Shown here piece after piece: positions 7,173-50,200 of a stretch of 64,000 bases of DNA. Below the pieces are notes generated by a model. That model did no database searches and had not been told where the DNA came from. It worked only from the letters and a program-made list of their open reading frames with translations. Source of the DNA: Stellaceae bacterium. Its GTDB lineage: Bacteria; Pseudomonadota; Alphaproteobacteria; ATCC43930; CGMCC-115725. Each line of letters opens with the position of its first letter. Position 1 is the stretch's first letter. Position numbers and translations under genes: made by a program. The DNA lies in assembly GCA_036561245.1 (NCBI GenBank), contig DATBPQ010000102.1:35388-99387 (forward strand). The letters run 5' to 3'.

Positions 7173-7177
7173 CGCTC

Positions 7178-8933: not shown

Positions 8934-8941
8934 GGCGACCT

Positions 8942-10711: not shown

Positions 10712-11493
10712 AGCGTCAGCGTGCCTTCGATCACCGGCGCGCACTGGCCGGCGATCAGCACGCGGTCGCCGCGGTCTTCGCACCACAATTCGCCGCCGCG
10801 TTTCGAGACTTGGCGCGCGAACAGTTTGTTCTTGCCAAGACGCGCCGACCAGTACGGCACCAGCGTGCAATGGGCCGACCCGGTGACCGGGTCCTCGTCG
10901 AGCCCCGCCTTCGGCACGAAATAGCGCGACACGAAATCGCAATCCTCGCCCGGTCCGGTCGCGATCACGCCGAACGGTTCGAGCGCGGCCACTTTACGGA
11001 ACTCGGGCTTTAGCGCTCGCACCGCGTGCGCGCTGTCGAACACCGCGAGCGCGTTGCCGTTGCCGGCAAGCAGCATTTCCGTTGGGCGTGCGCCCAGCGC
11101 ATCGGCCGCAGCGTCGATGCCGCCGACCGGCTCGGCGGGTCGCGCGGGAAAATCCAGCACCAGCCGTTCGCCGTCGCGCGTCACAGTGAGCACGCCGGAG
11201 CGGCTGCGAAAATCGATGCTTTCGAGCGGCCAGTCGAAACGGTTGAAGATCACCCACGCGCTCGCCAGCGTGGCGTGGCCGCATAGTTCGACCTCGATGG
11301 CGGGCGTGAACCAGCGCAGATGAAAGCCTTCATCCTCCGGCACGTAGAATGCCGTCTCCGACAGGTTGTTTTCCATGGCGATGGCTTGCATCGTCGCGTC
11401 GTCGAGCCATTCCTCGAGCGGACAGACCGCGGCGGGATTGCCGCCAAAAGGTTTCGCGGTGAAGGCGTCGATCTGATAGAGCGGAATTTTCAT
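10708..11493 (-). CDS. PhzF-family isomerase/epimerase-like protein
   Basis: MKIPLYQIDAFTAKPFGGNPAAVC...SETAF...RWFTP..EVELCGHATLA is the PhzF signature. I chose the internal ATG at 11493 because the upstream 23 codons overlap a REP-like palindrome. Confidence 0.85.
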   Translation of the reverse strand: MKIPLYQIDAFTAKPFGGNPAAVCPLEEWLDDATMQAIAMENNLSETAFYVPEDEGFHLRWFTPAIEVELCGHATLASAWVIFNRFDWPLESIDFRSRSGVLTVTRDGERLVLDFPARPAEPVGGIDAAADALGARPTEMLLAGNGNALAVFDSAHAVRALKPEFRKVAALEPFGVIATGPGEDCDFVSRYFVPKAGLDEDPVTGSAHCTLVPYWSARLGKNKLFARQVSKRGGELWCEDRGDRVLIAGQCAPVIEGTLTL

Positions 11494-13867: not shown

Positions 13868-14863
13868 ATGATTGTGTTCGAGCGCTGGCGAAGCGTCGCC
13901 GTTATCGCCGCACTGATTTTGGTGCCGTCGCTCGCAGGCGCGCGCACCTATGCTTTGACACCCGGCCAGAACGCGATCGGCGGCATCGGTGAGTACGTCG
14001 CCGTCTACAAGGACACGCTGCTCGACGTCGCACGCGACAACGACCTCGGCTATGCCCAGCTGATGCTCGCGAATCCAGGCGTCAATCCGTGGATTCCGGG
14101 CAAGGACAAGCACATCGTCCTGCCAAACCTTTATCTGCTGCCGGATGGGCCGCGCAAAGGTATTGTCCTCAATCTCGCCGAACAGCGTGTGTTTTATTTC
14201 CCACCTGGCGGCAAGACGGTTGAGACGTATCCGATCGGCGCCGGAGTGCAAGGCTGGATCACGCCCACCGGCGTCACGCGTGTCGTCAGCAAGCAGATTC
14301 ATCCAGGATGGACGCCGCCGCCCTCGATCCGCCGCGAGCGCCCGGAACTGCCGGCCTATATGCCACCGGGGCCCGACAATCCGATGGGCGACCTCGCAAT
14401 GGGGCTCGGGTGGCGCGGCTATTACCTTCACGGCACCAACAAGCCTTACGGCGTCGGCCGCAATGTCAGCCATGGCTGCATTCATTTCTATCCCGAGGAT
14501 ATCGACCATTTGTTCCACGAGATTCCAGTCGGCACGCAGGTCCGCGTGATCAACCAGGAAGTCGAGGCGGCGTGGGTGCATAACCGGCTCTATGTCGCGG
14601 TGTTTCCCAACAAATCGCAGGTCGATGAAATCGATATCGAGCATCCGATAACCCGCGTCGTGCCCGACGATCTCGTGCAGCGCGTGCGCGACGTCGCCGG
14701 CGACAGAGCCGATGAGGTCGATTGGGCGCTGGTGACGCGGCTTGGCCTCGAGCGCACCAGCATCCCGACTCCGGTAACGCCGCCGAGTATCGCAGATGCG
14801 GGGCAGCCCGGCGTCACGCCGGTTTCGGCAACGCACCCGATGCCGACGGCGCCGGCAAGATAA
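13868..14863 (+). CDS. L,D-transpeptidase (YkuD/ErfK family) with an N-terminal LysM-like region
   Basis: Catalytic motif HGTNKPYGVGRNVSHGCIHF. Signal peptide MIVFERWRSVAVIAALILVPSLAGA. I chose the ATG at 13868 rather than the track start at 13742, which overlaps the lipoprotein gene. Confidence 0.85.
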   Translation: MIVFERWRSVAVIAALILVPSLAGARTYALTPGQNAIGGIGEYVAVYKDTLLDVARDNDLGYAQLMLANPGVNPWIPGKDKHIVLPNLYLLPDGPRKGIVLNLAEQRVFYFPPGGKTVETYPIGAGVQGWITPTGVTRVVSKQIHPGWTPPPSIRRERPELPAYMPPGPDNPMGDLAMGLGWRGYYLHGTNKPYGVGRNVSHGCIHFYPEDIDHLFHEIPVGTQVRVINQEVEAAWVHNRLYVAVFPNKSQVDEIDIEHPITRVVPDDLVQRVRDVAGDRADEVDWALVTRLGLERTSIPTPVTPPSIADAGQPGVTPVSATHPMPTAPAR

Positions 14864-16205
14864 GCGTCGCGATCAGCCCAGGATCGCCGTCGGCGAATTC
14901 GAGCCGCCCGCCATGCAGCTTGGCGACGGCGGCGACCACGCTGAGACCCAGCCCCACGCCGCTTTTGCCCTTGCCGGCGTCGCCGCGATAGAAGCGGCGC
15001 ACCACCTCGGTCTTTTCCGCGTCGGCGATGCCGGGCCCGCGATCCGTCACGCGCACTTCGGCGGCGCCATCGGCGGTTTGCCTTACGTCGAGCACGACTT
15101 TTCCACCGGCCGGCGAAAATTTTACGGCGTTGTCGACGAGGTTCGAGATCGCCTGCGCCAAGAGGTCGGGGTCGCCTTGCACCGTGACCGCGTCGGCCGG
15201 CGCCGCATAAGCGAGATCGCTGCCTTTGGCCTCCGCGACCGGCCCGTAAAGCTCGGCGACCTCGGCCGCCACGCTGTCGAGCCGCACCTCGCGGAAGCCC
15301 GAGAGACGCGCACCTGAATCGATGTCGGCGAGACGCAGCAGCGCGTTGAAGACGCCGATGACACGGTCGAGATCGCCGACCGAGCCCTGCACCTCGCTCC
15401 ATGCCTCCTCGATCGGCGGGCGGCGGCGAAGTAATTCCTCGAGCCGGTTGCGCAGCTCGGTTAGCGGCGTGCGCAGATCGTGCGCGACGGTGTTGGAAGC
15501 GTTGCGCACGCCTTCGATCAGAACCTGAATCTGCGCCAGCATGCCGTTGATGGTCTGCGACAGCTGGTCGAATTCGTCGGTCGAGTCGTGGGTCGGCAAG
15601 CGCCGCGCCAGATCGCCCCGCACGATCGCGGCGGTTGTGCGGTTGATCGCCTCGACCTGGCGGAGGACGCCGCGCCTGATCAGCATGCCACCCGCGATCG
15701 CGAGCAGAATCGCGATGCCCACGGCCCAGGCCAGCCCGCCGAGGATGGTGCGGCGGATCGCGACACGGTCCTGCACGTCGCGCCCGACCAGCAGGCGATA
15801 GCCTCCGGGCAGCGCGGCATAGATGATCCGCGTCGCATGAAGGCGGCCATTGCGCGCCAGTCCGATCTCGTACCAACCGGGCCCGCCGCCGATCTGCACC
15901 GGCCAGGCGCTGAGATTGCCGGCGAGCGCATGAAGGCCGGGGTCGGCGAGGAGATAGATCGCGTGCTCGTCGGATTCCGCGGCGGCACGGTCGCGCACCG
16001 TTTGGAGCGCGCCGATCAGGCCGAAATCGTGCAGCCGGTCGCCGACCGCCTGCGCGTCGGCGACGATGACGGCATCGACCTCGCGGTCGAGATAGGCCGC
16101 GGTGCGCCACCACAACGCGCCAACCAAGAGGAACGAGGAGAGAATGAAAATCGCGGCATAACCCAGCGCCAAGCGCACCGAGACCGACCGCAACAAGCGG
16201 ATCAT
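14814..16205 (-). CDS. Sensor histidine kinase (two TM segments, HAMP, HisKA, HATPase_c)
   Basis: 463 aa. H-box VAHDLRTPLT, N-box NLVDNAVKF, G-boxes DRGPGI and GVGLGL. The start overlaps the response-regulator stop (ATGA at 16202-16205). Confidence 0.9.
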   Translation of the reverse strand: MIRLLRSVSVRLALGYAAIFILSSFLLVGALWWRTAAYLDREVDAVIVADAQAVGDRLHDFGLIGALQTVRDRAAAESDEHAIYLLADPGLHALAGNLSAWPVQIGGGPGWYEIGLARNGRLHATRIIYAALPGGYRLLVGRDVQDRVAIRRTILGGLAWAVGIAILLAIAGGMLIRRGVLRQVEAINRTTAAIVRGDLARRLPTHDSTDEFDQLSQTINGMLAQIQVLIEGVRNASNTVAHDLRTPLTELRNRLEELLRRRPPIEEAWSEVQGSVGDLDRVIGVFNALLRLADIDSGARLSGFREVRLDSVAAEVAELYGPVAEAKGSDLAYAAPADAVTVQGDPDLLAQAISNLVDNAVKFSPAGGKVVLDVRQTADGAAEVRVTDRGPGIADAEKTEVVRRFYRGDAGKGKSGVGLGLSVVAAVAKLHGGRLEFADGDPGLIATLILPAPSASGALPKPA

Positions 16206-16996: not shown

Positions 16997-18517
16997 TCAG
17001 CCCCGCTGCAATTGCAGCGCCAGATAATACGTGTTGCCGTTGCGCGTCACCAGCAGCGGCACAGCTTCTTTCTTGTCGCGCTCGGCCTGATGGATTTTCG
17101 CCACCGCCTCGGACGGCGTTGTCACCGATTCGTCACCGACGCGCTGGATCACGTCGCCTTCCTGCAAACCGCTTTCGTCGGCGCGGCTGCCAGGCTGGAC
17201 GTTGGCGACCACGACGCCATTGGCCGACGGATCGAGGCCGAGCTGCTCGCGGGTCTCGCGCGACAGCGGGGCGAGCGCCATGCCGACGCGCTCCTGACTT
17301 TCATGCGAGGCGGCCGACGCGGTCTTTTCTTTCGCCATCGTGCCGATGGTGACGGCGACCGTGCGCTCGCTGCCGCCGCGCCACACGGTGAGGTTCACGC
17401 TGCGTCCGGCAGCGGAGTTGGCGACATCGCGGGCGAGATCGCGCCCGTCTTTGATCGAGATGCCGTTATACGCCAGGATCACGTCACCCTGTTTCAGCTC
17501 GGCGTGCGCCGCCGGAGAATTCGCCGTCACGTCGTCGACCAGGACGCCGCGCGGCTCCTTCATGCCGATCGCTTTGCCCAGCGCCGGCGTCACCGGCTGC
17601 ATCTGAACGCCGAGCCAGCCGCGCGACACGCTGCCATGCTCGCGCAGTTGCGACACGACATGCGACGCGATATTGGACGGGATCGCGAAGCCGATCCCGA
17701 CGCTGCCGCCGTTCGGCGAATAGATCGCGGTGTCGATGCCGATCACCTGGCCCGACTGATTGAACAGCGGCCCGCCGGAATTGCCCGGATTGATCGGCGC
17801 ATCGATCTGGAGGAAATCGTCGTAGGGACCTTCGTTGATGTTGCGGCCGTGCGCCGAGACGATGCCCGCGGTGACGGTGCCGCCGAGGCCAAACGGATTG
17901 CCGACCGCGACCACCCAGTCGCCGACCTGCTCGCCGTCGGAATTGCCGAACGCGACGTAGGGGAGGGTTTTGTGCGCGTCGATCTTCAACAGCGCGAGAT
18001 CGGTCTTGTCGTCGCGGCCGATCACCTTCGCCAGATAGGACGAGCCGTCGTCGAGCGTGACAGTGATCTTGTTGGCGTGATCGATGACGTGGTTGTTGGT
18101 CACGATGTAGCCGGCGGGATCGACGATGAAGCCCGACCCCATCGCGCGCTCAAGCGCACCACCGCCTTGGCCGCCGCGCTGTTGATGCTGAAAGAATTGC
18201 CGCATCATGTCGCCGAACGGCGAATCCTGATCGCCGAAATCCGGCATCTGCTGCATTTCGGTCATGTTCGAGGCATGGGTCACGCCGGCAGTCGAGATGT
18301 TGACCACCGCGGCCTTCACCTGCCGGACCAGCGGCGCGAAGCCGGCCTGGTTGAACACCGGCTGCACCGTGCCGGGCGCGACCTGGATCGGCGCGGCCAA
18401 GGCGGTGCTGCCGTTCGACCAGAAATAACCGCCGGTGGCGAGCGCAGTGCCCGCGAGCAAAGCGGCGGCAAACGCGGTCTTGCGGCCACGGCCCAAACGA
18501 TCGAACAAAGATGTCAT
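16997..18517 (-). CDS. Periplasmic serine endoprotease, DegP/DegQ (HtrA) family, two PDZ domains
   Basis: 506 aa with a signal peptide. Catalytic blocks TNNHV, DLALLK and GNSGGPL, followed by two PDZ-like regions. Confidence 0.9.
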   Translation of the reverse strand: MTSLFDRLGRGRKTAFAAALLAGTALATGGYFWSNGSTALAAPIQVAPGTVQPVFNQAGFAPLVRQVKAAVVNISTAGVTHASNMTEMQQMPDFGDQDSPFGDMMRQFFQHQQRGGQGGGALERAMGSGFIVDPAGYIVTNNHVIDHANKITVTLDDGSSYLAKVIGRDDKTDLALLKIDAHKTLPYVAFGNSDGEQVGDWVVAVGNPFGLGGTVTAGIVSAHGRNINEGPYDDFLQIDAPINPGNSGGPLFNQSGQVIGIDTAIYSPNGGSVGIGFAIPSNIASHVVSQLREHGSVSRGWLGVQMQPVTPALGKAIGMKEPRGVLVDDVTANSPAAHAELKQGDVILAYNGISIKDGRDLARDVANSAAGRSVNLTVWRGGSERTVAVTIGTMAKEKTASAASHESQERVGMALAPLSRETREQLGLDPSANGVVVANVQPGSRADESGLQEGDVIQRVGDESVTTPSEAVAKIHQAERDKKEAVPLLVTRNGNTYYLALQLQRG

Positions 18518-38070: not shown

Positions 38071-40383
38071 ATGGGGATCGCCCACCTCCGGCCACGGTCC
38101 CGCCCGCTCGCGACGATGCTCGCCGCGGCGGCGATGTCGCTTGCCGCCGGCCCGCTCGGCGCGGCGACATCGGAAATGTGTCAACCGCCGCCGCCCGCGA
38201 GCCAGCGTTTCCAGCCGCTGACCGCGGCGCCGCCGCGTCCCTGGAGCGCACCGACGATCCGGCGCGACCATCCGCGATTGTTCTTCGATCCGGCCCATCT
38301 GGCGCGCTTCCGGGCGCATTGGACCGATCCGGCCTATGCCTCCGTGGTGAAAGAATACAAATTCGACGTCGGGCTCGACCCGGTGAGCGAAGCGTTGCGC
38401 GGTCTCGCCATCGAAGACGAAGCCGCGTGCCGGCTCGCCGCGCGTACCGTCGCATCCGCCGGATGGAAGCCGAAAAAGAATCTGTCGAGCGGGCCGCCTG
38501 GCGGCTTCGACTGGAATATCTTCGGCCCGCCCGACTATGTCTACGGTGACGCCGAGGCGCTGGTGTTCGACTGGTGCTATTTCGCGCTGACGCCGGAGCT
38601 GAAGGCGCGGCTGATCGCCAAGATCGAAGCGGCGAACGCAAAGCGCGAGGCATCACTCAACAAGAAATTCCAATGGCACGAGGCGCATTTCCTCGGTCTC
38701 CACGGCTATCTCATGGGCGTGCTCGCCGTCGCGGGCGAGCCCGGCGCAAGCGACCGGCTGCAAAAGGCGCAGAACGCGCTCCAGAATTTCACCGACATCG
38801 GCAACGAGCTGCATGGTGACGGCGGCTACAAGACCTATTCCTATCAGGACACGTTCCTGATCGTGCCGTCGATCCTGTGGAGCATGGCGACCGGCCAGGA
38901 CGTGGTGCGCCGCAACCAGTTCGTCATGCATCATGCAGATTTCCTGCTGCGCCGCCTGTCGCAGGACGGCGACGATTTCATCGCCGGCCCCGGCGACCAA
39001 GCCTCGGATCAGCGCGGCATGGTTATCCGGCTGCAAAACCCGTCTGCGCTCGGCCCGCTGATGATCGCCGATTATCTCCATGACGGGTTCGCGCAATGGC
39101 TCGGCCAGTTCCTCCTGGAAAAACAGGGGTTCGGCAAGCGCTGGGACAATCCGCGCTGGCTCGACCTGATTTTCCACGACGACAAACTGACGCCCGTGCC
39201 GCCAGCGCGCGCTGACATCCCGCCGGTGCGTTACTTGGCCCGTGAAGGCATGGTCGATTTCCGCTCGGGCTGGAACACCGGCAAGGCCGGCGCCGAGGAC
39301 ATCGACGCCTGGTTCTATCTCGGGCCGATGACCGAGCACGCCGAAACCGACGCCGGGCATTTCACGCTATGGCGCGGCAACGACGATCTCATCGTCGAGG
39401 GCGCGAACTATCTGAGCCGGCCGACCCGCTATCACCTTCTGTGGAGCGCGCTATCGCTTGCACGCAACACCGAAGTGTTTTCGCCTGTCGGCAGCAAATC
39501 GCCCGATCTCGACGGCGCCGAGCTGCCGCCGCCGACCATGGTCTATGACGACGGCCGCCAGTTCGGCGATGTCGGCGCCGAGCGGCTGGTCAAGAGCCAG
39601 TCCGACGCGACGCGGTCGCGCCTCGCGACTTTGTCGGCCGAGGCCTATCCGGTCGCCAACCGCATCATCTGGTACCCGGAATATGCCGCCTATCTCGGCC
39701 GGATTGATGACTTCTCCGACACCGGCGCGATCGCGCAAGCGACCGGCGACGCCACCGCCGCCTACGACCCGAACCACGTCCTGTCGTTCCGGCGCAGCGT
39801 GATCGACGTCAAACCGGATTTTTTCATTGTCCGCGACCGCTATCGCCTGCGCGACGTCGCCAGCGCGCGTATGTTCTTTCACACCCGCGACAAGCCCGTC
39901 GCCGCCGGCCTGCGCGTCATAGAAGGCAGCGAAACCGCCGGTGTCCTCGAAGGACGCGGCAACCGTGTCACCGTCGTGCGCGGCCAGAGCCAGGCGGTGA
40001 TCCAGATCTTGTCGCCGGCCGACGCCGTCATCCGTCTGGTAGGAGGTCCCGGCTATGAGAACTATGTCGACGGCACCAATGTCGAGGCTCGCGGCAATAC
40101 CGCCGATTGGCTAACGAAGCAGCCGGACTTCGCCGCGCGGATCGCGCGCATCACCGGCACTTGGCGCATTGAAATCGAAAACCTCCATCCCGGCCGCGAC
40201 GGCGAGACGATTGTCGCCATCGCCGTTGGCGCGCGCGGTGCGGCACCGCCTGCGGTCCACCTCGTTCGCGCCGGAAGCGGCGAGACCGTGGAGCTGCGCC
40301 GCGGCAACGGCCGACCTATTGCCGTCAGCCTATCCGACACCAAGGAGTCCGATCGTGACATCGCTGCCTGCGTCACCAATTGA
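38071..40383 (+). CDS. Exported heparinase II/III-like (polysaccharide lyase fold) protein
   Basis: I chose the ATG at 38071 (MGIAHLRPRSRPLATMLAAAAMSLAAGPLGAA signal). The block TEHAETDAGHFTLWRGNDDLIVEGANY resembles the heparinase II/III C-terminal motif. About 770 aa. Confidence 0.62.
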   Translation: MGIAHLRPRSRPLATMLAAAAMSLAAGPLGAATSEMCQPPPPASQRFQPLTAAPPRPWSAPTIRRDHPRLFFDPAHLARFRAHWTDPAYASVVKEYKFDVGLDPVSEALRGLAIEDEAACRLAARTVASAGWKPKKNLSSGPPGGFDWNIFGPPDYVYGDAEALVFDWCYFALTPELKARLIAKIEAANAKREASLNKKFQWHEAHFLGLHGYLMGVLAVAGEPGASDRLQKAQNALQNFTDIGNELHGDGGYKTYSYQDTFLIVPSILWSMATGQDVVRRNQFVMHHADFLLRRLSQDGDDFIAGPGDQASDQRGMVIRLQNPSALGPLMIADYLHDGFAQWLGQFLLEKQGFGKRWDNPRWLDLIFHDDKLTPVPPARADIPPVRYLAREGMVDFRSGWNTGKAGAEDIDAWFYLGPMTEHAETDAGHFTLWRGNDDLIVEGANYLSRPTRYHLLWSALSLARNTEVFSPVGSKSPDLDGAELPPPTMVYDDGRQFGDVGAERLVKSQSDATRSRLATLSAEAYPVANRIIWYPEYAAYLGRIDDFSDTGAIAQATGDATAAYDPNHVLSFRRSVIDVKPDFFIVRDRYRLRDVASARMFFHTRDKPVAAGLRVIEGSETAGVLEGRGNRVTVVRGQSQAVIQILSPADAVIRLVGGPGYENYVDGTNVEARGNTADWLTKQPDFAARIARITGTWRIEIENLHPGRDGETIVAIAVGARGAAPPAVHLVRAGSGETVELRRGNGRPIAVSLSDTKESDRDIAACVTN

Positions 40384-41425
40384 CGCGCCCCGCGCCGCCA
40401 AGCGCATCCTCGCCTGGCCGCGCGACCTGCGGCTCAACCCGATGCCGGGCATGGTCTATGACGACATGGAGCAGGGTTTCGGCTGGCGCGTCCGGCGCTT
40501 TAACTATTGGCGCGCGCTGATCGGCAGCGAGGCCATTCTGCATGTCAGCTTCCCCAACGTCGTGTTCCGCAACCGCTCCAAGGTCGTGACGCTGGCGCGC
40601 TATGCCCTGTCGGCAACGTCGCTGCGCGCCGCGCGGTTTCTGGGCCGGCGCTTGGTCTGGACGGTGCACAATCTCGCCGACCATGAGAGTTATCACCCGC
40701 GTCTCGAGGCGCGATTCATGGATTTTTACACCCGGCTGGTCGATCTCGCCGTGCATTTGAGCGAGGCCGGTCGCGAGGTCACGATGGCGCGCTATCCGCG
40801 TCTCGGCGCCATCCAAAACACCGTGATTCCGCATCCGCATTACGGCGAGATCATCGGCGAGCGGATGTCGCGCGAGGCGGCGCTGGCACGGCTCGGCCTG
40901 CCGCCCGACTGCAAGCTGATCCTCGCTTTCGGCGTGGTGCGGCGATACAAGAACCTGCTCAAGCTGATCCGCGCCTTCAACGACATGCCGGGCAACGATA
41001 CCCGGCTGTTGATCGCGGGCATGCCGCTCGATGCCGGCATCGCCGACGCGATGAAGCGGGTCGCCGGCGATGGCCGCGTCACGTTGATGCTGCGTACCAT
41101 CAAGGAGCCGGAGATCGCGACCCTGTTCAGCGCGGCAACGCTGGTGGTGGCGCCCTATCTCGAAATTCTCAATTCCGGCACCGCGTTCATGAGCCTGACC
41201 TACGGCCGGCCGATCCTGGTGCCGGATCGCGGCGCGCTCAAGGAATTGCGGACTCACGTCGGCGACGCATGGATCAAGCTGTTCGACGCGCCGCTGACGC
41301 CGCTGGAGCTCGGCGACGCGCTTTATTGGGCGCAGCAACCGCGTCCGCCGGCGCCGAATCTCAGCCGTTTCGCGCCGGAACGGATCGCCGCTTCCTACGA
41401 CGAGGCGTTCGCCGCCCTCATTTAA
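40355..41425 (+). CDS. Glycosyltransferase (GT-B, group 1-like)
   Basis: GTG at 40355 is preceded by AAGGAG 7 nt upstream. The C-terminal half (ILAFGVVRRYKN...LLIAG...ATLVVAPYLEILNSGTAFMSLTYGRPILVP) fits GT4-type donor-binding motifs. It overlaps the upstream gene by 29 nt. Confidence 0.7.
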   Translation: MTSLPASPIDAPRAAKRILAWPRDLRLNPMPGMVYDDMEQGFGWRVRRFNYWRALIGSEAILHVSFPNVVFRNRSKVVTLARYALSATSLRAARFLGRRLVWTVHNLADHESYHPRLEARFMDFYTRLVDLAVHLSEAGREVTMARYPRLGAIQNTVIPHPHYGEIIGERMSREAALARLGLPPDCKLILAFGVVRRYKNLLKLIRAFNDMPGNDTRLLIAGMPLDAGIADAMKRVAGDGRVTLMLRTIKEPEIATLFSAATLVVAPYLEILNSGTAFMSLTYGRPILVPDRGALKELRTHVGDAWIKLFDAPLTPLELGDALYWAQQPRPPAPNLSRFAPERIAASYDEAFAALI

Positions 41426-43430
41426 CCGTCGCGGTGTAGACGCCATCCCAGTCGGGCGGCGGCGGCGCTGCTTCGAACTCGCGGATGCGATGTTCGTAGA
41501 GCGCGTAAAACGGCATCACGAGTTCGGGCGCCTCGGCGCGGCAGGCATGAAGATGACGCCGCGCCTCCGCCCATTGCTGCGCGCGATAGGCCGCAAGCAA
41601 AGCATCGTGCGAGATCTTGAGCGCGACGAACGCCGGATTGGTCGCGACCGCCTCGTCGCCGACCAGCGTGAAAATGCGCACGGGCTTGGTCTTGCCCTTC
41701 ACCAGGATCAGGTCGAGCTCAAGATAGGCGAAGCCGGGACATTCGTTCGCCGTCGGCTCGTTGACGACGATATCGACGCCGTAGGTCTTGGACTGACCTT
41801 CAAGCCGCGAGCAGACATTCACTTCGTCGCCGAGCACGGAATAGTTGAGGCGCTGCGGCGTGCCCATGTTGCCGACACAACATTCGCCGGTGTTGATGCC
41901 GATGCCGATACGTACCGCGGTGTAGGGATGATGCGCCGCTTCGGCCTCGGCCTTGAGGCCGGCGTTGAACCGCACCAACTCCGAGCGCATCGCCAGCGCG
42001 GCGCGGCAGGCATGCTCGGCATGGGCGGGGTCGTCCACCGGCGCGTTCCAGAACGCCATGATCGCGTCGCCCATGTATTTGTCGATGGTGCCGCCGGCCG
42101 CGAGGATCGCGTCGCTCATCGGCGTCATGAAGCGGTTGACGAAATGCGTCAACTCCTGGGCGTTGAAGCGCTCGGAGATCGTGGTAAAGCTGCGGATGTC
42201 GCTGAACATCAGCGTCAGGTCGCGCATCTCGCCGCCGAGCTTCAGCATGCCTGGGTCGTCGGCGAGCCGCTTCACCAGTTGCGGATTGAGATAGCGCGCG
42301 AACGCCGACTGGATGAATTCGCGCTGGCGCCGCGCCTGCCGGCCGGTGATGGCGTCGGTGCCCCACAACGACAGCAGGAACGCGACGCTTGGCTCCAGAA
42401 GCGGCACCATCACGCCGGTGAAATAGGTCGCCGCGAAACCCGCCACCCAGAGCACGACGAGAATCACGGCGCCGACCGCAAGATAAAAACCGAAATGGCG
42501 GTGCAGCAAGCCGAACCCGGCGCCAAGCGCGGCCATGAACAGCACGAGCAGAATCTCGCCTGTGAGATCGAGCCGCTGTGAGTGGTGCCCGGCCAGCAAC
42601 TGCGCGACCGCGTCCGCATGTATCTCGACGCCCGGCAATTGGCCGCGCAGACCCGGATAAACCACATGGAACGGCGTGCGGTGGCGGTCGGTCAGGCTGA
42701 CGATTTCGCCGATCATGACCACCTTCCCGGCGAACCAGGATGCCGGCAAGAGCGGTGCGACATGGGCCGGATAAATCTTGAACGGACTCGTCTTGCTGTC
42801 GGGACGGCCATGCCAGACGATTTCTTCCTGCACCGCCGGCGTCTTGATCCCGGCGCTTGCCGCCACCGCGCGTGCCAGGCCGGGGATATATTTTCCGTCC
42901 GTCCCTTCGGCGCCCGGGAAAATCCAGCGCACCGTGCCATCCACCGGGTCGACCGCGAATTCCGCGCGCGCACGCAGGCGCGGCGGCAGGAAATCGTTGA
43001 GATATTTGAGTTGCGCCGAGTCGACAAATTGCCGGTTGTCGCTGTAGGAGACGTGAAGCGGCGTCTTGAGCGCAGCCATCGTGTCTTTCAGCGCCTTGTC
43101 CTTGTCCGGCTCGGTCGCCTGGTCGAACAGCACGTCGAGGCCGATGGCGCGCGGCTTCTTGGCATCGAGGCTGGCGAGGAGTTTCGCGAGGAAGCCGCGA
43201 TCGACCGGCGAGCGGTACGGAAACTGCTTAAGCGTATCCTCGTTGATCGCGACGATCACCACGTTGGGGTCCTGCGGCTCCGGCGGCAACATGGTCGCGA
43301 TGCGGATGTCGGCGACGATACGTTCGAGCTGAGTTAGAACCGCGATCTTGTGCGCCGCCACCATCGCGGCGGCGGTCACGATCAACGTAACGGCGGCAAA
43401 GACGACGAGAGCCCGCCATTTGAACTTCAT
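41418..43430 (-). CDS. CHASE2 sensor-domain class III adenylate/guanylate cyclase (predicted adenylate cyclase)
   Basis: 670 aa. TM1, then a periplasmic CHASE2 domain (VVIVAINEDTLKQFPYRSPVDRGFLAKLL...AIGLDVLFDQ), three TMs, then the cyclase domain (LTLMFSDIRSFTT, IDKYMGDAIMAFWNAP, IGINTGECCVGNMG, LGDEVNVCSRLE). Confidence 0.9.
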   Translation of the reverse strand: MKFKWRALVVFAAVTLIVTAAAMVAAHKIAVLTQLERIVADIRIATMLPPEPQDPNVVIVAINEDTLKQFPYRSPVDRGFLAKLLASLDAKKPRAIGLDVLFDQATEPDKDKALKDTMAALKTPLHVSYSDNRQFVDSAQLKYLNDFLPPRLRARAEFAVDPVDGTVRWIFPGAEGTDGKYIPGLARAVAASAGIKTPAVQEEIVWHGRPDSKTSPFKIYPAHVAPLLPASWFAGKVVMIGEIVSLTDRHRTPFHVVYPGLRGQLPGVEIHADAVAQLLAGHHSQRLDLTGEILLVLFMAALGAGFGLLHRHFGFYLAVGAVILVVLWVAGFAATYFTGVMVPLLEPSVAFLLSLWGTDAITGRQARRQREFIQSAFARYLNPQLVKRLADDPGMLKLGGEMRDLTLMFSDIRSFTTISERFNAQELTHFVNRFMTPMSDAILAAGGTIDKYMGDAIMAFWNAPVDDPAHAEHACRAALAMRSELVRFNAGLKAEAEAAHHPYTAVRIGIGINTGECCVGNMGTPQRLNYSVLGDEVNVCSRLEGQSKTYGVDIVVNEPTANECPGFAYLELDLILVKGKTKPVRIFTLVGDEAVATNPAFVALKISHDALLAAYRAQQWAEARRHLHACRAEAPELVMPFYALYEHRIREFEAAPPPPDWDGVYTATVK

Positions 43431-43437: not shown

Positions 43438-44151
43438 CTAGCGGGCGGCTTGCAGCAGCGACTTTACTTGGGGCACGCAGCCGACCTGGATCATCCAGGC
43501 GGCACGCATCGCGTCGTTGCTCACGGCGGCGGGCATCGTCACCAACGTCACCGCGGTTTCCTTGTTGCCGACCCTGATCACATAGGTCTGGCGATTGCGC
43601 AGCGGCACGGCGGCGCCGAGCGGCAGGCGATCGGTCCCCGCCTGCCATTCGGTGCGCACCAGCCAGCTCCTGTCGTAGGGCGCGATGGTCACGGCTGACG
43701 CCCCGCCACCGCCAGGCCGCCAGAAAACGACCGGGTAGTTAGCGGGCAGGCAGCGCGTGCCGTCGCGCGTGACGTCGACCAGCCATGGCTGGGGCGGCAC
43801 CGGATCGTCGGCGGCGCCGCGCACCACGCCAAGTTCGGAATTGTCGGCCAGTTCCTGCGTCACCAGAGTCCGCAGCGCGCCCTTCACGTCCACCGTCGAG
43901 CCGCCCTGGCTCGGCGCTGGCGCGGCGTTCGACGGACCATGCAACTTGATGATTTCCCCGCTCGGCGAGATCAGGGTCACAACCTGCCCGTCCTTGAGCG
44001 CCAACGGCTTGCTGCCGTCGATCTCGGCGCCAGGCTTCAAATCGATGCCGCGCGCCTCGACCACGACGAGGTTGGCGGCGCGCGCAGCCGCGGCGCCCAT
44101 CGTCACGGCCAACAGGGTAACCGCCGCCATCGTGAGAAGTCGAGCGAGCAT
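43438..44151 (-). CDS. Exported 237-aa protein of unknown family (possible FecR-like N-terminal and DUF928-like C-terminal regions)
   Basis: The start ATG at 44149-44151 overlaps the CHAT stop (TGATG). Signal peptide MLARLLTMAAVTLLAVTMGAAAARA-AN. The longer track ORF (to 44622) overlaps the CHAT gene out of frame and is not credible. Confidence 0.7.
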   Translation of the reverse strand: MLARLLTMAAVTLLAVTMGAAAARAANLVVVEARGIDLKPGAEIDGSKPLALKDGQVVTLISPSGEIIKLHGPSNAAPAPSQGGSTVDVKGALRTLVTQELADNSELGVVRGAADDPVPPQPWLVDVTRDGTRCLPANYPVVFWRPGGGGASAVTIAPYDRSWLVRTEWQAGTDRLPLGAAVPLRNRQTYVIRVGNKETAVTLVTMPAAVSNDAMRAAWMIQVGCVPQVKSLLQAAR

Positions 44152-47100
44152 CAGTGCATCTCCCTCGTCGTCAGCGAGGACTGCCGCGTCGGCGCCGCAC
44201 CGGCCATGCCGCGATCGCCGTCGCCCAGCACGGTAAACGCGGCCCAATAGAACGGATTGGCGGTCCCCGGTTGACTTATGAGCGCCAGTTGCGATTGGCG
44301 CAAGGCCTGGGCGGTACCGCCGCTGCCGCCAAGGCGCTGGAACATGCCGACCATGAGCGAGGCGGTCGCGGCCGACGGCACCTGCCAGTGGCTCGCCACC
44401 AGCGTACGGGCGCCGGCGAAGAAGAAGGCCTGCGCCACGCCCGACAGCGCCTCGCCGCCGAGCTTCGTGCCGCCCTCGGCGGTATTGCAGGCCGACAGCA
44501 CGACGAGATCGGCGTTGAGCCGCAGCCCGGCGATTTCGCTGGCATCGAGCAACCCGTCCTCGGCCCGGGTCGCGGCCGGCGTCGCCGGTGGCGACAGCGC
44601 CAGCGCCGGCTGGGTCTGGCAATTGAGCTCGCCTGGCAGCAGGCCGTGGGTCGCGAAATAGAGGACGCGGAACTGGTCGAGCGGCTCCCGGCGGAACGCG
44701 GCTTCGGTCGCGCCCCGACCGGTCAGCAGATCGCCCGGCCCGGCACCCAGCGTCTGCGCCACGCGCTGCAATTCGCCGGCGGTGTCGGGCAGCGGCGCCA
44801 GCGCACGCAGCATCTGCGGCGGGATCGGCCCATCACCGGCGCAATGCGCGGCCAGCGCTTCGAGGCCGGTGCCGCGGCCCTTGGCAGAACCTGCGAAATC
44901 GGGATTGCCAACGCCAAGGAACGGCCGCGCGGCATGGGTAACGGCGGCCTTGTCGCGCAACGTCGTGAAGGCGCGCACCGACGGCACGACGCTGCCGGCA
45001 AAGCGGCGCACCAGCCAGGAAGCCCGGGCATAGTCGCGCGCTCCGCCCGGCGGCTGCGTCACCAGCAGCGCCAGCGGCAGGCTGGCGAGCGACTGACCGG
45101 GCGCCACGATCAGACTGTCGATGCCGGCGAGTTGGTTTTCGATCGGGCCGAACAGGGTGCGGTAAAGCTTGTAGACATCCGTCGCGTCGAATTCCTGGAT
45201 ACGGCCCTGGCGGATGTCGAGCGTGCGGCGGATGCCGCGCACCGCGGCGGCGATCTGGGTGCGGTCGGACTGGACCGGCCGCGCGACGAATCCGTGCGCC
45301 GTCACCAGGATCACGGCGGCGTGGTCGCGGCCGAACTCGAACTCGACAAGCGCCTCGTTCGGCGCCAGGCGCTTTTGCAGCGCCGCGAGTTCGACCGGCT
45401 CGGGGCTGGCGAGACGGAAATAGCCGGGGAACTGCTTGCGGATTTGCGCCTCGAGCGCCGCGTTACGCGCGGTCTCCTGGTTCACCTGGGCAAGCAGCGT
45501 GTTTTCCTTGTCGGCGCCGCGCTGCGCCTGCGGCAGCGAGCTCTCATAGGCCAGCATCAGCCGCGCATTGTCGCGTCGGCGCTCGGACTCTTGCAGGTCG
45601 CGCACCAGTTTTTCGGTCGCCGGATCGCGCGCCGCAAGCCGCGCCGACGCGCGCGCCACGGTCTGATCGGCGACGCTCGCCGACATGTATTGCAGCGCCT
45701 TGAAGAGCACGCCGTCGAGCTCGGCGCGGCGGTTCGGGAACTGCTTGCCAAGCGCGTTGTCGATTGCAACCAGCGGCGCGATCTGGTCGTAAACCAGAAG
45801 AGAACGCGTGACATCGTCCTTGGCGATGATGTCGAGCGCGAATTCGTAGGTGCGCAACGCCTCGTCGTAGAGCTTGTCGGCCGCGTAGACCCGGCCGATC
45901 GCCAGCGCCGTCATCGCGGTCGGCGCCGAATTGCCAAACAGGCGCTGATTGAAGATCAAGGCGCCGCGCAGGCTTTCCTCGGCTTCACGCAGCCGGCCTT
46001 CGCGCGCCAGCACGTCGCCGAGCGTCATCAACACGTCGGGCCCCCACCATGGCGGCAGATCGTGCTCCTCGCCGATGATGCCGAGCGCTTCCTTGGCCGC
46101 GGCCTCTGCGTAGGCGACATCGTTGGTGCGCCAAGCCATTGCGGCCGCGAGATTGAGCGTGTGCGCCAGCTCGCCGCGCATTGCGTCACGGGCTTCGCTG
46201 CCGCCGGCCAGTTCCTCGATGCCGGATTTTTTTTGCGCGATCAGATCGCGCCACATCGCCGCAGCGCTTTTGGCGTATCGCAACGCGTCGGCAAATTTGT
46301 CTCGATTGGCGGCGTCGAAACCGAGATAGACGAAATTGCGCGCGCGGTAGATCGGATTGTCCGACGCCTGGATGATCGGATCGGCGCGGCGGAACAGACC
46401 CGCCGCTTCCTCGAATCGGCCCTGGTTGCTGACCACGATGCCAAGATTCAAGAGCGTGGTCGCGACACCGATGGTTTCGGGACCGAAAGCGCGCACCTGA
46501 ATGTCGAGCGCCTCGCGATAGGCCTTTTCCGCGGCGGGATAATTCATCCGGCTGCTGTAGAGACGCGCCTGCTCGACCAGATCGCCATAGCGATTGAAGG
46601 AAGCGCCGCCGGAAATCTTGAGTTTATTGCCGAACGCCCCCTCAAGATCGCTTCGCGCGGCGTCGGTGCCGCCGAACGCAAAACCGGACGCCGGGCTGTA
46701 GCCGGCAAGCGACGCCATTTCCGCTTCGAGCGCCGGCATCAGCGTCGGCAGTCCGTCGCCTTGCACCAAATATCGCCCGAGCGCGGCGACGATCCGCACT
46801 TGCGGCCAGTCGCCGTCGACCATCGCGCAGGATTGCACCAACAGCTCGACGCCGTCTGGGGTGCGGGTCCATTTGCCCGCCTGACACACCATGCGGCTGG
46901 CGGAGTCGCGTCCGGCCGGGGCCTCGGCGGCGGCGCGCTCGATGGCGGCATGTCGCGCGGGTCCGGCCGGCGGCAGGGTCAGCGGCAGCACGATGGCGGA
47001 CACCGCGCCGCTGGGCCGGTTGCTGCTTTCGCCGCAGATGAGATAGACGGGCGCGGGCGCGCCTGGATCGGGCGCGATGTCGGCGCGCGGGGCGGTGCGG

Positions 47101-47213
47101 CACGCTTCGCCATTCAAGTCGCTCATGCCAACCGGCTTGTTGGCCGCGTGCGCCGGAACGCCTGCCAGCAGAACGATCGCGCCGAGCGCCGCGATGCCGG
47201 CCGCCCTTACCAT
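44151..47213 (-). CDS. Sec-exported TPR-repeat CHAT-domain (caspase-like) protease
   Basis: 1020 aa. Signal peptide IAALGAIVLLAGVPAHA-AN, a roughly 200-aa Cys-containing N-domain, TPR-like helical repeats, and a C-terminal CHAT domain. The catalytic dyad is present: YFATHG (His856, codon 44646-44648) and VLSACNT (Cys909, codon 44487-44489). Confidence 0.9.
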   Translation of the reverse strand: MVRAAGIAALGAIVLLAGVPAHAANKPVGMSDLNGEACRTAPRADIAPDPGAPAPVYLICGESSNRPSGAVSAIVLPLTLPPAGPARHAAIERAAAEAPAGRDSASRMVCQAGKWTRTPDGVELLVQSCAMVDGDWPQVRIVAALGRYLVQGDGLPTLMPALEAEMASLAGYSPASGFAFGGTDAARSDLEGAFGNKLKISGGASFNRYGDLVEQARLYSSRMNYPAAEKAYREALDIQVRAFGPETIGVATTLLNLGIVVSNQGRFEEAAGLFRRADPIIQASDNPIYRARNFVYLGFDAANRDKFADALRYAKSAAAMWRDLIAQKKSGIEELAGGSEARDAMRGELAHTLNLAAAMAWRTNDVAYAEAAAKEALGIIGEEHDLPPWWGPDVLMTLGDVLAREGRLREAEESLRGALIFNQRLFGNSAPTAMTALAIGRVYAADKLYDEALRTYEFALDIIAKDDVTRSLLVYDQIAPLVAIDNALGKQFPNRRAELDGVLFKALQYMSASVADQTVARASARLAARDPATEKLVRDLQESERRRDNARLMLAYESSLPQAQRGADKENTLLAQVNQETARNAALEAQIRKQFPGYFRLASPEPVELAALQKRLAPNEALVEFEFGRDHAAVILVTAHGFVARPVQSDRTQIAAAVRGIRRTLDIRQGRIQEFDATDVYKLYRTLFGPIENQLAGIDSLIVAPGQSLASLPLALLVTQPPGGARDYARASWLVRRFAGSVVPSVRAFTTLRDKAAVTHAARPFLGVGNPDFAGSAKGRGTGLEALAAHCAGDGPIPPQMLRALAPLPDTAGELQRVAQTLGAGPGDLLTGRGATEAAFRREPLDQFRVLYFATHGLLPGELNCQTQPALALSPPATPAATRAEDGLLDASEIAGLRLNADLVVLSACNTAEGGTKLGGEALSGVAQAFFFAGARTLVASHWQVPSAATASLMVGMFQRLGGSGGTAQALRQSQLALISQPGTANPFYWAAFTVLGDGDRGMAGAAPTRQSSLTTREMH

Positions 47214-50200
47214 AGCGCGCTGTTGCCCGACAGCGAGTAGCCAAAGGAAATGCCTGGCACACCGTTATGCGGCACCGACGGGATCAGCATCTGGTTGAGG
47301 TAGGCGCCAAGCGGATGGACGGTCTGCGGATGATATTCCGCGTTGGCAGCCGGCTTCTGCGACCCCTGATTGAGATAAGCGGTGAGGGTCGGATCCGAAT
47401 CCGAGGGCGTCTCCGGCGGAGGCTGATCCGGCGGCGAGGGCGGTAAAACGATGTCGACCGGCTGAGGCGGCGGCGGAAGCACCGGCGGCGGCGTGAACGC
47501 GGTCGGCGGCGGCGACGGGTTACCGCCTCCGGCGCTGCCGTCGGCGACGCCGTTGAACGTGCAGCCTGCGCAGCCGTTATTGGCAGTGACGTACTGGGCC
47601 GCGCCGTTGCCACTCTGGCCGTTGACCGTACCGGTCAGCGACGAAGTACCGGCATTGATGGTCAGGAAATCGCCCTTGCCGAGATTGACGCTGGTGATGC
47701 CGTTGGTGCCGTTCACGCCGCCGGTTCCACCAGCGTCGAGCGTCAGATTGCCGGTGCCCGGATCCTTGTTGATCGGATCGGCGGTGATCGAGCTGCCGAT
47801 GATGGTCAGCGGCGCGTCGAAGGTGAAGTCGTGCGTGGTGACGGCGCCGGTCTGCTGAGCCCCCGTGCTCACGTTGGCGTGCGACCCGATCGTCACCATG
47901 CTCGGCGAGCTGCCGTCGAGGAACGCGAGCTCGGCCGCGTTCAGGAGGAAGGACACCAGAGAGACGGGCGCGTTGCCGCCCAGGGTCACGGCGGTGTTCG
48001 CGGTGGTCGGGTAGAGATTGCGCGCGCCGGTGCCGCTCCAATTGCCGGCGAGAACGACGGCGTCGGACGAGACCGTGACGCTGTGGGCGCCCGTGGCGAC
48101 CGGCCCGAGCAACTCGATAACTCCGCCGGTGGCGTCGGTTTTCAGCGTGGTATTGGCGCCGAGGACCAGGTTGCCGGTATAGGTTTGCAGTGTCGTCGTC
48201 GTGGCGCCGCCGTTGTTGAGGTCGATCTCGCCGCCCTGCAAAACCAAGCCCGCCAATTCGTGGATGCCCGTGGTGCCGAGTTGGGACGTGCCGCCGACGG
48301 TGATCGTCCCCGTCCCCGCCAACATGGTGAAGCTTTCGCCGGCGGCGCTCGGGATGATCGAACCGATGAGATTGATCGGATCGTTCACCGCGCTGGCATC
48401 GAAGGTCGCGCTGCCGATCAGATTGAGATCGTCGTCGATCTTGAAGCACGGGCCGGTGCAGCCGTTATGTGTGCCCGGATTGAAGCCGCTCTTGAATGTA
48501 AACGTACCGGCCACATAAACCGGCCCCTTGCCCGGATCGAAAGACGAGGTGAACGTGCCGCCTTTCTTGAACTCCACGGCGACACTGTCGTCGTTCATGT
48601 CGGTCGCGCCGTTATAGTTGGCGACGTTCACCGCGCCGAGATAGATTGCCGCCGTCGTGGTCAGGGTCGGACTGGCATAGAGGCGCTGATCGACGATGTT
48701 GTTCGCGGTCACGGCACCGTCGAACGTGATGACGCCGCCATTGCCGCCCGTTAAACCTTCGGGCAGCGTGTTGGCATTACCGTTGATGTCGGCGCCGCAG
48801 CAACCGAGCACGATATTGTTCAGGTTGCTGACGTCGCCCGTGACGTGCGCAGAACCGTTTTCGACCAGTAGCCGAAGATTTTCGGTACCGTTGGCGCCCT
48901 GGATTGGCCCCCCGAGATACACCTTGCCGCCGAAACCCGGCGCGCCGCCCGCAGCCACGATTTCGACCGTCGCGCCGCCATACTGGTTCGAGTAGCTGCT
49001 GTTATCGACGAGTTGGATGTAGCTCGAGCCGAGCAGCGGCGAGGCATTGCCATGACCGTCGTCGCTGCTCTCGATGGTGATGGCACCGGCGGTCGCACCG
49101 AGCGAAAGTAGCGCGGGATGGCCGATCGAACTGAGGTCGGTTGCCTGCGGATCGTCGCCATTGCCGAAGATCGTCACCGCCGCTCCGCTGGTGGCGGTTG
49201 CAATCAGCTTGATATTACCGCCGTTGCCCAGCGTGCCGCCGGCCGACGACTGTCCGCCGCTGCTTTCGATAAATGCAAACGACAGCGAGGTGGCGCTGAT
49301 GACGATGTCGCCGCCGGCGCCGCCGTTACCGCCGGCGGCATTTCCGCCGCTCGACTGGAGCCCGACAAGACTGCCGGTCGCCGCGCTGCCGAGGGTGACG
49401 TTGCCGTTGGTGGCCGTCAGCGAAATGGCGCCGCCCTTGCCGCCGTTGGCCGTCGCCTCCGTCAAATCCGCGCCGCCGCCGGTGCTGCTGGCGCCTTGAT
49501 ACAGATTGATGCTGGCGCCCGTCAGGGTGATCGCGCCGCCATCGCCAGGCGTCTGTTCGGGACTGACGATCTGGGCGCCGTCGGCCGCGATGCTGCGGGG
49601 CGAAGTGGCGAACGTCTGGGAGCCGGAGCCCTGAGTCGTCAGAGCGATGGCCGAGCCGATATTGATGGCGCCACCGGCATTGATGGTCACCGCGCCACCG
49701 TTGCCCATCGTCTCGTTACCGGTGCCGTTGCCGCCAACCGCGAAGATGTTCTGGCCGATGTTGACGTCGCCCGTGGTCACGATGTTGATCGCGCCGGCAT
49801 CGCCGCCGGTGTTGGTGCTGATGAACGAGGTGGTGGTGAGGGACGCGGCGCCGGGCGTGGTGCCGTTCACGTCACCATTGCCCTCGATAATGAATTGACC
49901 AACCGAAAAGCCGTCGCCGTTCGGGCCGAGCGGCATGGTCAGATTGACGTTGTTGGCGCTGGTGATGATGACCGCAGCCGGCGGCGAGCCGCTGTCGTTC
50001 ACGAAATCAGTGCCATTGATGTACTCGGTGCCGACACGGCCGGCGAAGGTGATGTCGCCGTTCCCCGCGCTCAGCGACAGGGTGTGTGTCAGCGACGTGG
50101 AGTCGTCGAGTGTGCCGTTGAACGAGATCGCGGCACCGTCGTTTTTGAAGGTCGTGTCGATAGTGATGCTATTCTCGAGCACGGTCGGGCCGTTGAGCGT

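Follow-up and report, generated by a model that had tools for sequence, protein, structure and literature searches.

A predicted periplasmic TPR-CHAT protease is encoded in a conserved five-gene set with a two-partner secretion pair and a CHASE2 adenylate cyclase

DdvA, an anti-sigma factor of Myxococcus described in 2024, has a periplasmic portion in which tetratricopeptide repeats (TPRs) are joined to a caspase-like CHAT domain. The structure of this portion was solved by electron cryomicroscopy, its catalytic dyad is H862/C907, and DdvA has been proposed to start regulated intramembrane proteolysis by cleaving itself (PMC11506125). Here we analyze a gene for another TPR-CHAT protein, predicted to be exported, in a 64,000-nucleotide stretch of DNA from a Stellaceae bacterium (contig DATBPQ010000102.1, positions 35,388 to 99,387 of the forward strand; "the window"). 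The gene, referred to below as the CHAT gene, is an open reading frame (ORF) at 44151-47213 on the minus strand that starts with ATG and encodes 1020 amino acids. An earlier note on this DNA, made from the sequence alone, had set a CHAT protease outside the cytoplasm against the mostly cytoplasmic effectors in discussions of CHAT domains; for an extracytoplasmic one, DdvA is a published precedent (PMC11506125). The gene is part of a conserved and apparently undescribed five-gene set, together with genes for the exoprotein (TpsA) and the outer-membrane transporter (TpsB) of a two-partner secretion (TPS) pair, a predicted secreted protein of 237 amino acids and a predicted CHASE2 receptor adenylate cyclase. 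Searches of full texts for CHAT together with two-partner secretion, TpsB/ShlB, hemagglutinin or CHASE2 returned nothing relevant, and a review of two-partner secretion mentions neither CHAT nor caspase nor cyclase. A periplasmic TPR-CHAT protein as such was thus already known from DdvA; for the TPS/CHAT/CHASE2-cyclase module we found no published description.

Other described systems resemble parts of the set. Csx29, of the type III-E CRISPR system Craspase, and separase combine TPRs with a following CHAT caspase-fold domain, a His/Cys dyad and allosterically controlled, substrate-specific cleavage; they are cytoplasmic or nuclear proteins without a leader, and their partners are Cas7-11 or securin rather than the products of secretion genes. 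FhaB of Bordetella is a two-partner exoprotein that has a proline-rich region and whose extreme C-terminus is conserved; it is handled by the periplasmic or surface proteases DegP, CtpA and SphB1. By analogy, TpsA of the window may be likened to it as a TPS exoprotein with these same two features, although the Bordetella proteases are serine proteases that are not encoded by a coupled third gene, and the FhaB/FhaC system is not known to involve a CHASE2 cyclase. The CHASE2 cyclases CyaK and CyaD1/D2 of Sinorhizobium meliloti synthesize cyclic AMP (cAMP) when a protein signal, ribosomal protein uL2, is perceived through NsrA, an outer-membrane protein encoded directly upstream of cyaK (PMC13001267, PMC7529298).

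In the window, the five translationally coupled genes run on the minus strand in the order tpsB, tpsA, CHAT, 237-amino-acid gene and CHASE2 cyclase, with the CHAT gene third (Table 1). The CHAT start codon (ATG, 47213-47211) overlaps the tpsA stop codon (TAA, 47209-47207) in the sequence ATGGTAA, an overlap of 7 nucleotides. The ATG of the 237-amino-acid gene shares one base with the CHAT stop codon (TGATG) and is preceded by a GAGGGAG ribosome-binding site, and the gap between this gene and the cyclase gene is 7 nucleotides. The module ends after the cyclase. Beyond it, a glycosyltransferase gene that is part of a large polysaccharide cluster comes next among the real genes, on the plus strand and convergent. 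That the CHAT start lies inside the last codons of tpsA had been pointed out in the earlier note, and the arrangement recurs in orthologous loci: in those with tpsA directly upstream of the CHAT gene, the overlap is 1-10 nucleotides. The note went on to propose stoichiometric co-expression; the coupling does suggest co-expression, but it does not imply a 1:1 stoichiometry. Its pairing of the CHAT gene with tpsA only was too narrow, since tpsB, the 237-amino-acid gene and the CHASE2 cyclase gene travel with the CHAT gene as well.

Conservation of the set was surveyed in 80 loci, one genome per species, with the window proteins compared by tblastn. Among the 30 closest loci, the 237-amino-acid gene followed CHAT in 25, a CHASE2 cyclase gene came after the 237-amino-acid gene in 22, and TpsB and/or TpsA, scored as TpsB or the TpsA N-terminus, was encoded within 10 kb in 19; the contigs of several of the closest loci are truncated, which lowers these counts. 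For the next 30 loci, in which the CHAT protein is ~30% identical, the corresponding values were 0/30, 2/30 and 14/30. Carriers of the closest group include Niveispirillum as well as Stellaceae, Rhizomicrobium, Tagaea, Sphingomonas, Phenylobacterium and Burkholderiaceae; for the last six, the order CHAT, 237-amino-acid gene, CHASE2 cyclase is constant and TpsB/TpsA adjoin. In the closest group the gene for TpsB is sometimes relocated to a position after the cyclase, and across Alpha- and Betaproteobacteria the five-gene set recurs in varying order. On pMSHV of Sphingobium herbicidovorans (L082, 12785-27730), a Crp/Fnr regulator gene is followed by genes for CHAT and CHASE2 proteins, a hypothetical protein of 239 amino acids, a ShlB/FhaC protein and a hypothetical protein of 2092 amino acids, in which Pfam found no TPS domain at E<0.01. 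The Crp/Fnr-family regulator beside this set is a plausible cAMP-responsive output.

The distant-group CHAT proteins that were inspected (L031, L033, L036 and L059) are lipoproteins, and at ~30% identity such CHAT lipoproteins are still encoded after tpsB-tpsA. The picture suggested by these comparisons is of a core CHAT-TPS association to which the 237-amino-acid protein and CHASE2 output would have been added in the window's family. The association does not extend to all TPR-CHAT proteins, since a TPR-CHAT gene of Agrobacterium vitis lacks TPS linkage. Within the window's family, the conserved linkage to tpsB, the 237-amino-acid gene and the cyclase gene shifts the likely role of the CHAT protein from that of a stand-alone protease to that of a component of trans-envelope signaling or processing. 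As a separate observation, Niveispirillum sp. SYP-B3756 carries two copies of the CHAT/TPS locus in one genome (L017 and L027).

Table 1. Features of the five-gene module (window positions; aa, amino acids)
Feature	Position	Strand	Basis
tpsB, two-partner secretion transporter in the outer membrane, 565 aa	58687..60384	-	Pfam ShlB PF03865 E 4e-23, POTRA_2 PF08479 E 6e-20
tpsA, exoprotein, 3778 aa	47207..58543	-	Pfam TPS PF05860, TIGR01901
TpsA extreme C-terminus, last 45 aa, ...LIPSVPHNGVPGISFGYSLSGNSALW	47210..47344	-	Alignment of orthologous TpsA ends
Exported N-domain/TPR/CHAT cysteine protease precursor (predicted), 1020 aa	44151..47213	-	Translation, Pfam, homologues
Sec/signal-peptidase-I type leader, residues 1-23	47145..47213	-	Arg3, hydrophobic core AAGIAALGAIVLLAGV, A-H-A/A
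Family-specific N-terminal alpha/beta domain, residues 28-215, invariant Cys 38, 60, 110, 129	46569..47132	-	AlphaFold2, profile search
TPR array, kinesin-light-chain type TPR_12/TPR_10, ~residues 215-470	45804..46571	-	Pfam
CHAT caspase-fold domain, residues 682-998	44220..45170	-	Pfam PF12770
Catalytic His856 codon	44646-44648	-	Codon checked
Catalytic Cys909 codon	44487-44489	-	Codon checked
Secreted two-beta-sandwich protein (predicted), 237 aa	43438..44151	-	Leader, AlphaFold2, homologues
CHASE2 receptor adenylate cyclase (predicted), 670 aa	41418..43430	-	Pfam CHASE2, Guanylate_cyc

The CHAT ORF is a real gene rather than a chance reading frame, because it has 175 homologues (E<1e-10, word-index search), most of them full-length at ~1020 amino acids and 43-100% identical, and because its codon-position GC content (0.71/0.52/0.83) follows the usual coding pattern in this genome of 65% G+C. 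Its product begins with the leader MVRAAGIAALGAIVLLAGVPAHA, followed by ANK. We judged the leader from the rules for n-, h- and c-regions and for positions -3 and -1, and from how far it is conserved in orthologues, for which 115 full-length proteins of 43-100% identity were used here and in the orthologue counts below. The n-region is basic (Arg3), the hydrophobic h-region comprises 16 residues, where at least 10 are required, and Ala occupies positions -3 and -1. A strongly hydrophobic N-terminal segment is present in 107 of the 115 orthologues, although the leader sequence itself is not conserved. In about 30 orthologues the signal-peptidase-I site is replaced by a lipobox (e.g. LLLAAC, LLLASC or LVAGC), which marks these orthologues as predicted lipoproteins, tethered in the periplasm.

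The cysteines of the mature protein bear on the same question. Cys38, Cys60, Cys110, Cys129 and Cys791 are found in 115/115 orthologues and Cys865 in 114/115, and exactly seven cysteines follow the leader in 107. The six invariant non-catalytic residues fit three putative disulfides. These residues point to export, as disulfides are expected in the periplasm and unusual in the cytoplasm. Taken together with the leaders and lipoboxes, they make export of the CHAT protein very likely, and we infer that it is located in the periplasm.

Pfam matched the CHAT domain along nearly the entire profile (PF12770, positions 6-289 of 289; 214.9 bits against a cut-off of 24, E 2.1e-63). The domain contains the invariant Cys791 and Cys865 in addition to the dyad, and His856 and Cys909 are each kept in 114 of the 115 orthologues. 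These observations suggest that the CHAT domain is likely to be catalytically active as a protease.

The N-terminal domain was modeled by AlphaFold2 from a 57-sequence alignment as a compact alpha/beta fold (pLDDT 94.6, predicted template modeling score 0.91) in which all four cysteines lie in beta-strands. It had no match in Pfam (E up to 10) or NCBIfam, and Foldseek found no match in the PDB at E<1e-3. The best Foldseek matches in the PDB were weak (E 0.009-0.05, TM score 0.29-0.42) and comprised SciW/EagT6, PsbP, LpqN, DcrB, TiME and MTC28; every one of these has the Mog1/PsbP-like fold, and most are protein-binding modules outside the cytoplasm. We regard the modeled likeness to this fold (PsbP, DcrB, LpqN, DUF1795/Eag) as a lead and not as an assignment. 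A profile of the domain gave 293 matches at E<=0.001 among 1.84 billion representative proteins, and among the 150 matches listed it always stood at the N-terminus of a protein of ~1000 amino acids or of a fragment. The domain thus appears, as far as these matches indicate, to be specific to the CHAT protein family.

Much of what the earlier note had said of the protein itself was borne out. The ORF and the named residues were found where it had placed them; its coordinates were correct and the strand, which it had left unstated, is the minus strand. The catalytic His (YFATHG) and Cys (LSACNT) it had called intact are the conserved His856 and Cys909, the cysteines it had listed in GEACRT, LICGES, MVCQAG and VQSCAM are Cys38, Cys60, Cys110 and Cys129, and the cleavable Sec leader and export it had proposed agree with the hydrophobic leaders, lipoboxes and invariant cysteines of the orthologues. 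It had been unable to assign residues 25-220 to any family and had suggested a structure prediction and a structure-database search for them, which returned the confidently modeled discrete domain and the weak matches described above.

When the PDB was searched by sequence, either with the profile of the entire family or with its CHAT half by itself, any matches obtained were TPR proteins (e.g. kinesin light chain, E 5.5e-17), and DdvA, Csx29 and separase were not among them. Outside the TPRs, no sequence similarity to any PDB chain was detectable. In both DdvA and the window protein an extracytoplasmic portion of ~900 amino acids is arranged in the order scaffold, TPR, CHAT, with the dyad at nearly equal positions, H862/C907 in DdvA and H856/C909 in the window protein, and DdvA is proposed to be a signal-activated periplasmic protease that starts a trans-membrane signaling step (PMC11506125). 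DdvA is anchored in the membrane through an N-terminal zinc-binding anti-sigma domain and a membrane helix and controls a sigma factor of the extracytoplasmic function (ECF) type. The window protein, in contrast, carries a cleavable leader and an N-terminal domain of another kind, and its gene lies in a TPS/CHASE2 operon. Only the 23 residues of the leader precede the mature window protein, which does not fit a DdvA-like anti-sigma factor, and Pfam found no sigma or anti-sigma domain in the surrounding genes that were scanned.

TpsA and TpsB have the hallmarks of two-partner (type Vb) secretion: a TPS domain in TpsA (PF05860, residues 45-294, E 5.8e-29, 102.2 bits against a cut-off of 33.5; TIGR01901, 62 bits against 29.1) and, in the adjacent TpsB, a POTRA domain and a ShlB/FhaC-type barrel. 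Beyond the TPS domain, Pfam recognizes nothing across the 3778 residues of TpsA, which is repetitive and rich in Gly, Thr, Ala and Asn. A proline-rich stretch near the C-terminus is followed by the terminal sequence ...HNGVPGISFGYSLSGNSALW. In an alignment of TpsA C-termini from 12 orthologous loci, a pattern PG-(L/V)L ... G(V/T)P(G/P)..(D/E)..(F/Y)(S/P)..G....W-stop recurs, and the sequence preceding it, including the proline-rich region, is not conserved. We infer that the extreme C-terminus is a candidate docking or cleavage element for periplasmic partners. VENN, ELYN or a related CdiA-type demarcation motif was not found in TpsA; this proline-rich end with its short conserved motif, and a CHAT gene as the next gene, do not correspond to a contact-dependent inhibition (CdiA/CdiB/CdiI) locus. 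TpsA also has eleven closely spaced cysteine pairs along its repeat region (e.g. 590/595, 935/939, 1015/1020, 2085/2090 and 3658/3661), which suggest small disulfide loops that may punctuate a beta-helix.

The 237-amino-acid gene is the tightest genomic partner of the CHAT gene, being the one directly downstream of it in the 25 close loci noted above. Its product has a leader (AARA-AN) and invariant Cys134 and Cys225, and all of its 135 homologues, in a family of ~235 amino acids, are annotated as hypothetical. No Pfam (E up to 10), NCBIfam or PADLOC match was obtained. The AlphaFold2 model (pLDDT 84) consists of two beta-sandwich domains joined by a helix linker, for which Foldseek returned only generic Ig/FN3-like sandwiches.

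The cyclase has the domains of a CHASE2 receptor class III adenylate cyclase of the CyaK/CyaD type (CHASE2 PF05226, 111 bits, E 9.8e-32; Guanylate_cyc PF00211, 72 bits, E 5.5e-20). Hydropathy analysis placed hydrophobic segments at ~3-33 and 287-355, and the predicted layout is an N-terminal membrane helix, a periplasmic CHASE2 domain, a membrane-helix cluster at ~287-355 and a cytoplasmic class III cyclase domain. The protein is 37% identical to S. meliloti CyaK over 588 amino acids that span both domains (E 7e-87). By eye, its sequence contains FSDIRSF, MGDAIMA, IDKYMGD and VNVCSRLE, and the Ser of YSVLGD matches that of YSALGD in CyaK. We take these motifs to supply the metal-binding Asp residues (FSDIRSF, MGDAIMA), the Lys (IDKYMGD) and the Asn and Arg (VNVCSRLE) of the catalytic site, and the predicted product is cAMP.

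A comparison with the NsrA-CyaK system shows that both include a barrel in the outer membrane, a TPR-containing element in the periplasm and a CHASE2 cyclase. NsrA (L084, S. meliloti pSymB 5243-10794) is a single polypeptide in which Pfam places FecR at 66-160 and TPRs at 378-587, followed by a barrel, and its stop codon overlaps the cyaK start. It lacks a CHAT domain, a TpsA partner and a beta-sandwich protein, and the CHAT protease, the TpsA filament and the beta-sandwich protein are specific to the window module; profile comparison detected no similarity between the 237-amino-acid protein and the FecR-containing NsrA N-terminus. Elsewhere, in Trichodesmium erythraeum, a cyanobacterial metacaspase is reported to be fused to a CHASE2 domain (gene 638105709), which is an independent link between caspase-fold proteases and CHASE2 sensors (PMC2853523).

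The best explanation of the CHAT protein, from the features set out above, is that it is a Sec-exported, disulfide-stabilized TPR-CHAT protease that would serve as a dedicated accessory of the five-gene module. We propose, with moderate confidence, an overall model in which this protease processes a periplasmic partner, most likely the candidate TpsA C-terminus, and the cyclase reads out the result. TpsB would thread the giant TpsA filament to the cell surface, and the proline-rich C-terminal end of TpsA with its terminal motif would stay in, or return to, the periplasm, like the FhaB prodomain of Bordetella. The CHAT protein would capture this end through its TPR array, its N-terminal domain or both, and the CHAT domain would cleave the captured end, or would cleave the 237-amino-acid partner. 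The 237-amino-acid beta-sandwich protein and the periplasmic CHASE2 domain might then sense the outcome, and the cyclase would change cAMP synthesis. The TpsA end is proposed as the partner because its conserved terminal motif follows an unconserved proline-rich region, and the cyclase is proposed to read out an envelope protein signal because of its identity to CyaK. A role for the periplasmic TPR-CHAT protein as a signaling protease is suggested because of the DdvA precedent (PMC11506125), and the link from proteolysis to cyclase output is the predicted step that joins the two halves of the model. A more elaborate version, which we consider tentative and on the whole unlikely, has the TpsA filament sense contacts or ligands outside the cell: when something changes there, its conserved C-terminus in the periplasm would become accessible to the TPR-CHAT protein, and the cleavage product, or the cleaved 237-amino-acid protein, would be the activating CHASE2 ligand that leads to cAMP.

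If this more elaborate version is true, surface events would be turned into cAMP by a new kind of trans-envelope proteolytic signaling device. Few ligands that activate CHASE2 receptors have been described, and the module would provide a concrete, testable relay from a surface filament and a periplasmic protease to a cyclase. The Sinorhizobium CyaK/CyaD proteins, the best-studied CHASE2 cases, need an outer-membrane protein and a protein signal, with the periplasmic step a black box. Two-partner secretion usually involves two genes; here a caspase-fold protease would be a widespread third partner, often accompanied by a fourth and a fifth, which suggests that TpsA proteins undergo regulated proteolysis in the periplasm more generally than Bordetella alone would indicate. 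The module would be, after DdvA, a second and much more widely distributed extracytoplasmic setting for bacterial caspase-like proteases, in which the protease is predicted to be soluble or lipid-anchored and disulfide-stabilized.

Several observations weigh against this model. The C-terminal motif of TpsA is short and aligns loosely, at a mean column identity of 30%. In two of the close loci, L003 and L017, the CHAT and 237-amino-acid genes have no CHASE2 cyclase gene beside them, so the cyclase is not obligatory, and this output component is, judging from the loci, sometimes unlinked or absent. The TPS genes shift position relative to the CHAT, 237-amino-acid and cyclase genes, and distant TPS-linked CHAT loci lack the latter two; instead of a single pathway, the five genes may therefore form two sub-modules that are coupled. 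Finally, catalysis by the CHAT domain of DdvA is itself only a proposal (PMC11506125).

Some of the same observations would be accounted for if the CHAT protein were purely a maturation or release protease that trims a TpsA C-terminal pro-region to let the mature filament be released or properly displayed, as DegP, CtpA and SphB1 do for FhaB, with the cyclase and the 237-amino-acid protein an independent pair that shares the operon. CHAT-TPS linkage is broader than CHAT-cyclase linkage, as the counts for the distant loci indicate, L003 and L017 have no adjacent cyclase, and the proline-rich region and conserved terminal motif of TpsA may be seen as recalling the FhaB prodomain layout. However, the close family keeps the order CHAT, 237-amino-acid gene, cyclase, with genes overlapping or near-abutting, more strongly than it keeps the position of the TPS genes, and the same five genes are retained in Sphingobium even though they are reordered. 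We consider a protease of this purely maturing kind unlikely.

Alternatively, the protease might be directed at the receptor side, cleaving the 237-amino-acid protein or the CHASE2 ectodomain in a site-1-like manner, with TpsA/TpsB serving only as sensor or conduit. The tightest partner of the CHAT gene is indeed the 237-amino-acid gene, with its overlapping stop and start codons. In the DdvA model, signal-induced CHAT cleavage opens a membrane signaling cascade (PMC11506125), and the protein signals to which CHASE2 cyclases respond are perceived at the outer membrane (PMC13001267, PMC7529298). A protease of this kind would leave the TPS-linked CHAT lipoproteins that lack the 237-amino-acid and CHASE2 genes unexplained, and we regard this alternative as doubtful.

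It is quite improbable that the protein is a non-catalytic scaffold or chaperone, in which the TPRs and N-terminal domain hold unfolded TpsA or its C-terminus and the CHAT domain is confined to binding or regulation. TPRs are protein-binding modules, the weak fold matches of the modeled N-terminal domain include chaperones and adaptors (EagT6/SciW, PsbP, DcrB), and cleavage by DdvA, the sole studied periplasmic TPR-CHAT protein, is a proposal only (PMC11506125). The retention of His856 and Cys909 in 114 of 115 orthologues, down to 43% identity, is nevertheless hard to explain without catalysis.

A role in conflict or defence, with TpsA as a contact-dependent toxin or phage sensor, the CHAT protein as a releasing peptidase and the cyclase as a Pycsar-like enzyme, seems very improbable, and we do not interpret the locus in this way. 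Defence systems often include CHAT proteases, DdvA controls a defence island (PMC11506125), and in PADLOC the cyclase domain gave matches to Pycsar cyclase models (best E 1.2e-28). These matches reflect generic class III homology, as CyaK is far closer (E 7e-87); the CHAT domain and the 237-amino-acid protein had no PADLOC match, and the CHAT protein as a whole matched only a generic TPR model (E 6.2e-05). The locus has no Pycsar effector, VENN motif, C-terminal toxin domain or immunity gene, and the neighboring genes are for polysaccharide synthesis and housekeeping. The idea that the protein is cytoplasmic, its start having been mis-called and translation beginning without a signal peptide at Met30 (GMSDL), has a negligible chance of being correct: no strong Shine-Dalgarno sequence precedes the ATG at 47213, but Met30, the sole alternative start, is not conserved, whereas the hydrophobic segment upstream of it and the lipoboxes recur among the orthologues, orthologous loci again have an "MV" start that overlaps the stop codon of tpsA, and the six invariant cysteines suit an oxidizing compartment.

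Several other ORFs in and around the module were rejected. On the plus strand opposite the CHAT gene, an ORF of 1028 amino acids (44154-47240) is a shadow ORF with inverted codon-position GC, and reading 44151-47213 on that strand yields an Arg/Gly/Ala-rich nonsense translation. A minus-strand ORF at 43438-44622 (394 amino acids, TTG start) is an artefact created by upstream extension of the 237-amino-acid gene over the CHAT 3' end. Another artefact, at 40373-41446 (357 amino acids) on the minus strand, lies opposite the real plus-strand glycosyltransferase gene. Long spurious ORFs such as these (44154-47240 on the plus strand, the other two on the minus strand) are typical of a genome of 65% G+C.

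The module adjoins a region for polysaccharide synthesis and export (window 1-41425), which is mostly on the plus strand from 33668. Its genes encode a Wza-like Poly_export/SLBB protein, Wzz, a Bac_transf priming transferase, several glycosyltransferases and a Wzy_C ligase/polymerase, as well as UDP-glucose dehydrogenase, heparinase II/III-like proteins and asparagine synthase. DegP is among the proteases that degrade the FhaB prodomain in Bordetella; a gene for a DegP/HtrA-type periplasmic serine protease (Trypsin_2 and two PDZ domains) lies at 16997-18517 on the minus strand, ~27 kb from the module, and is adjoined by a gene for a HAMP histidine kinase (14814-16205).

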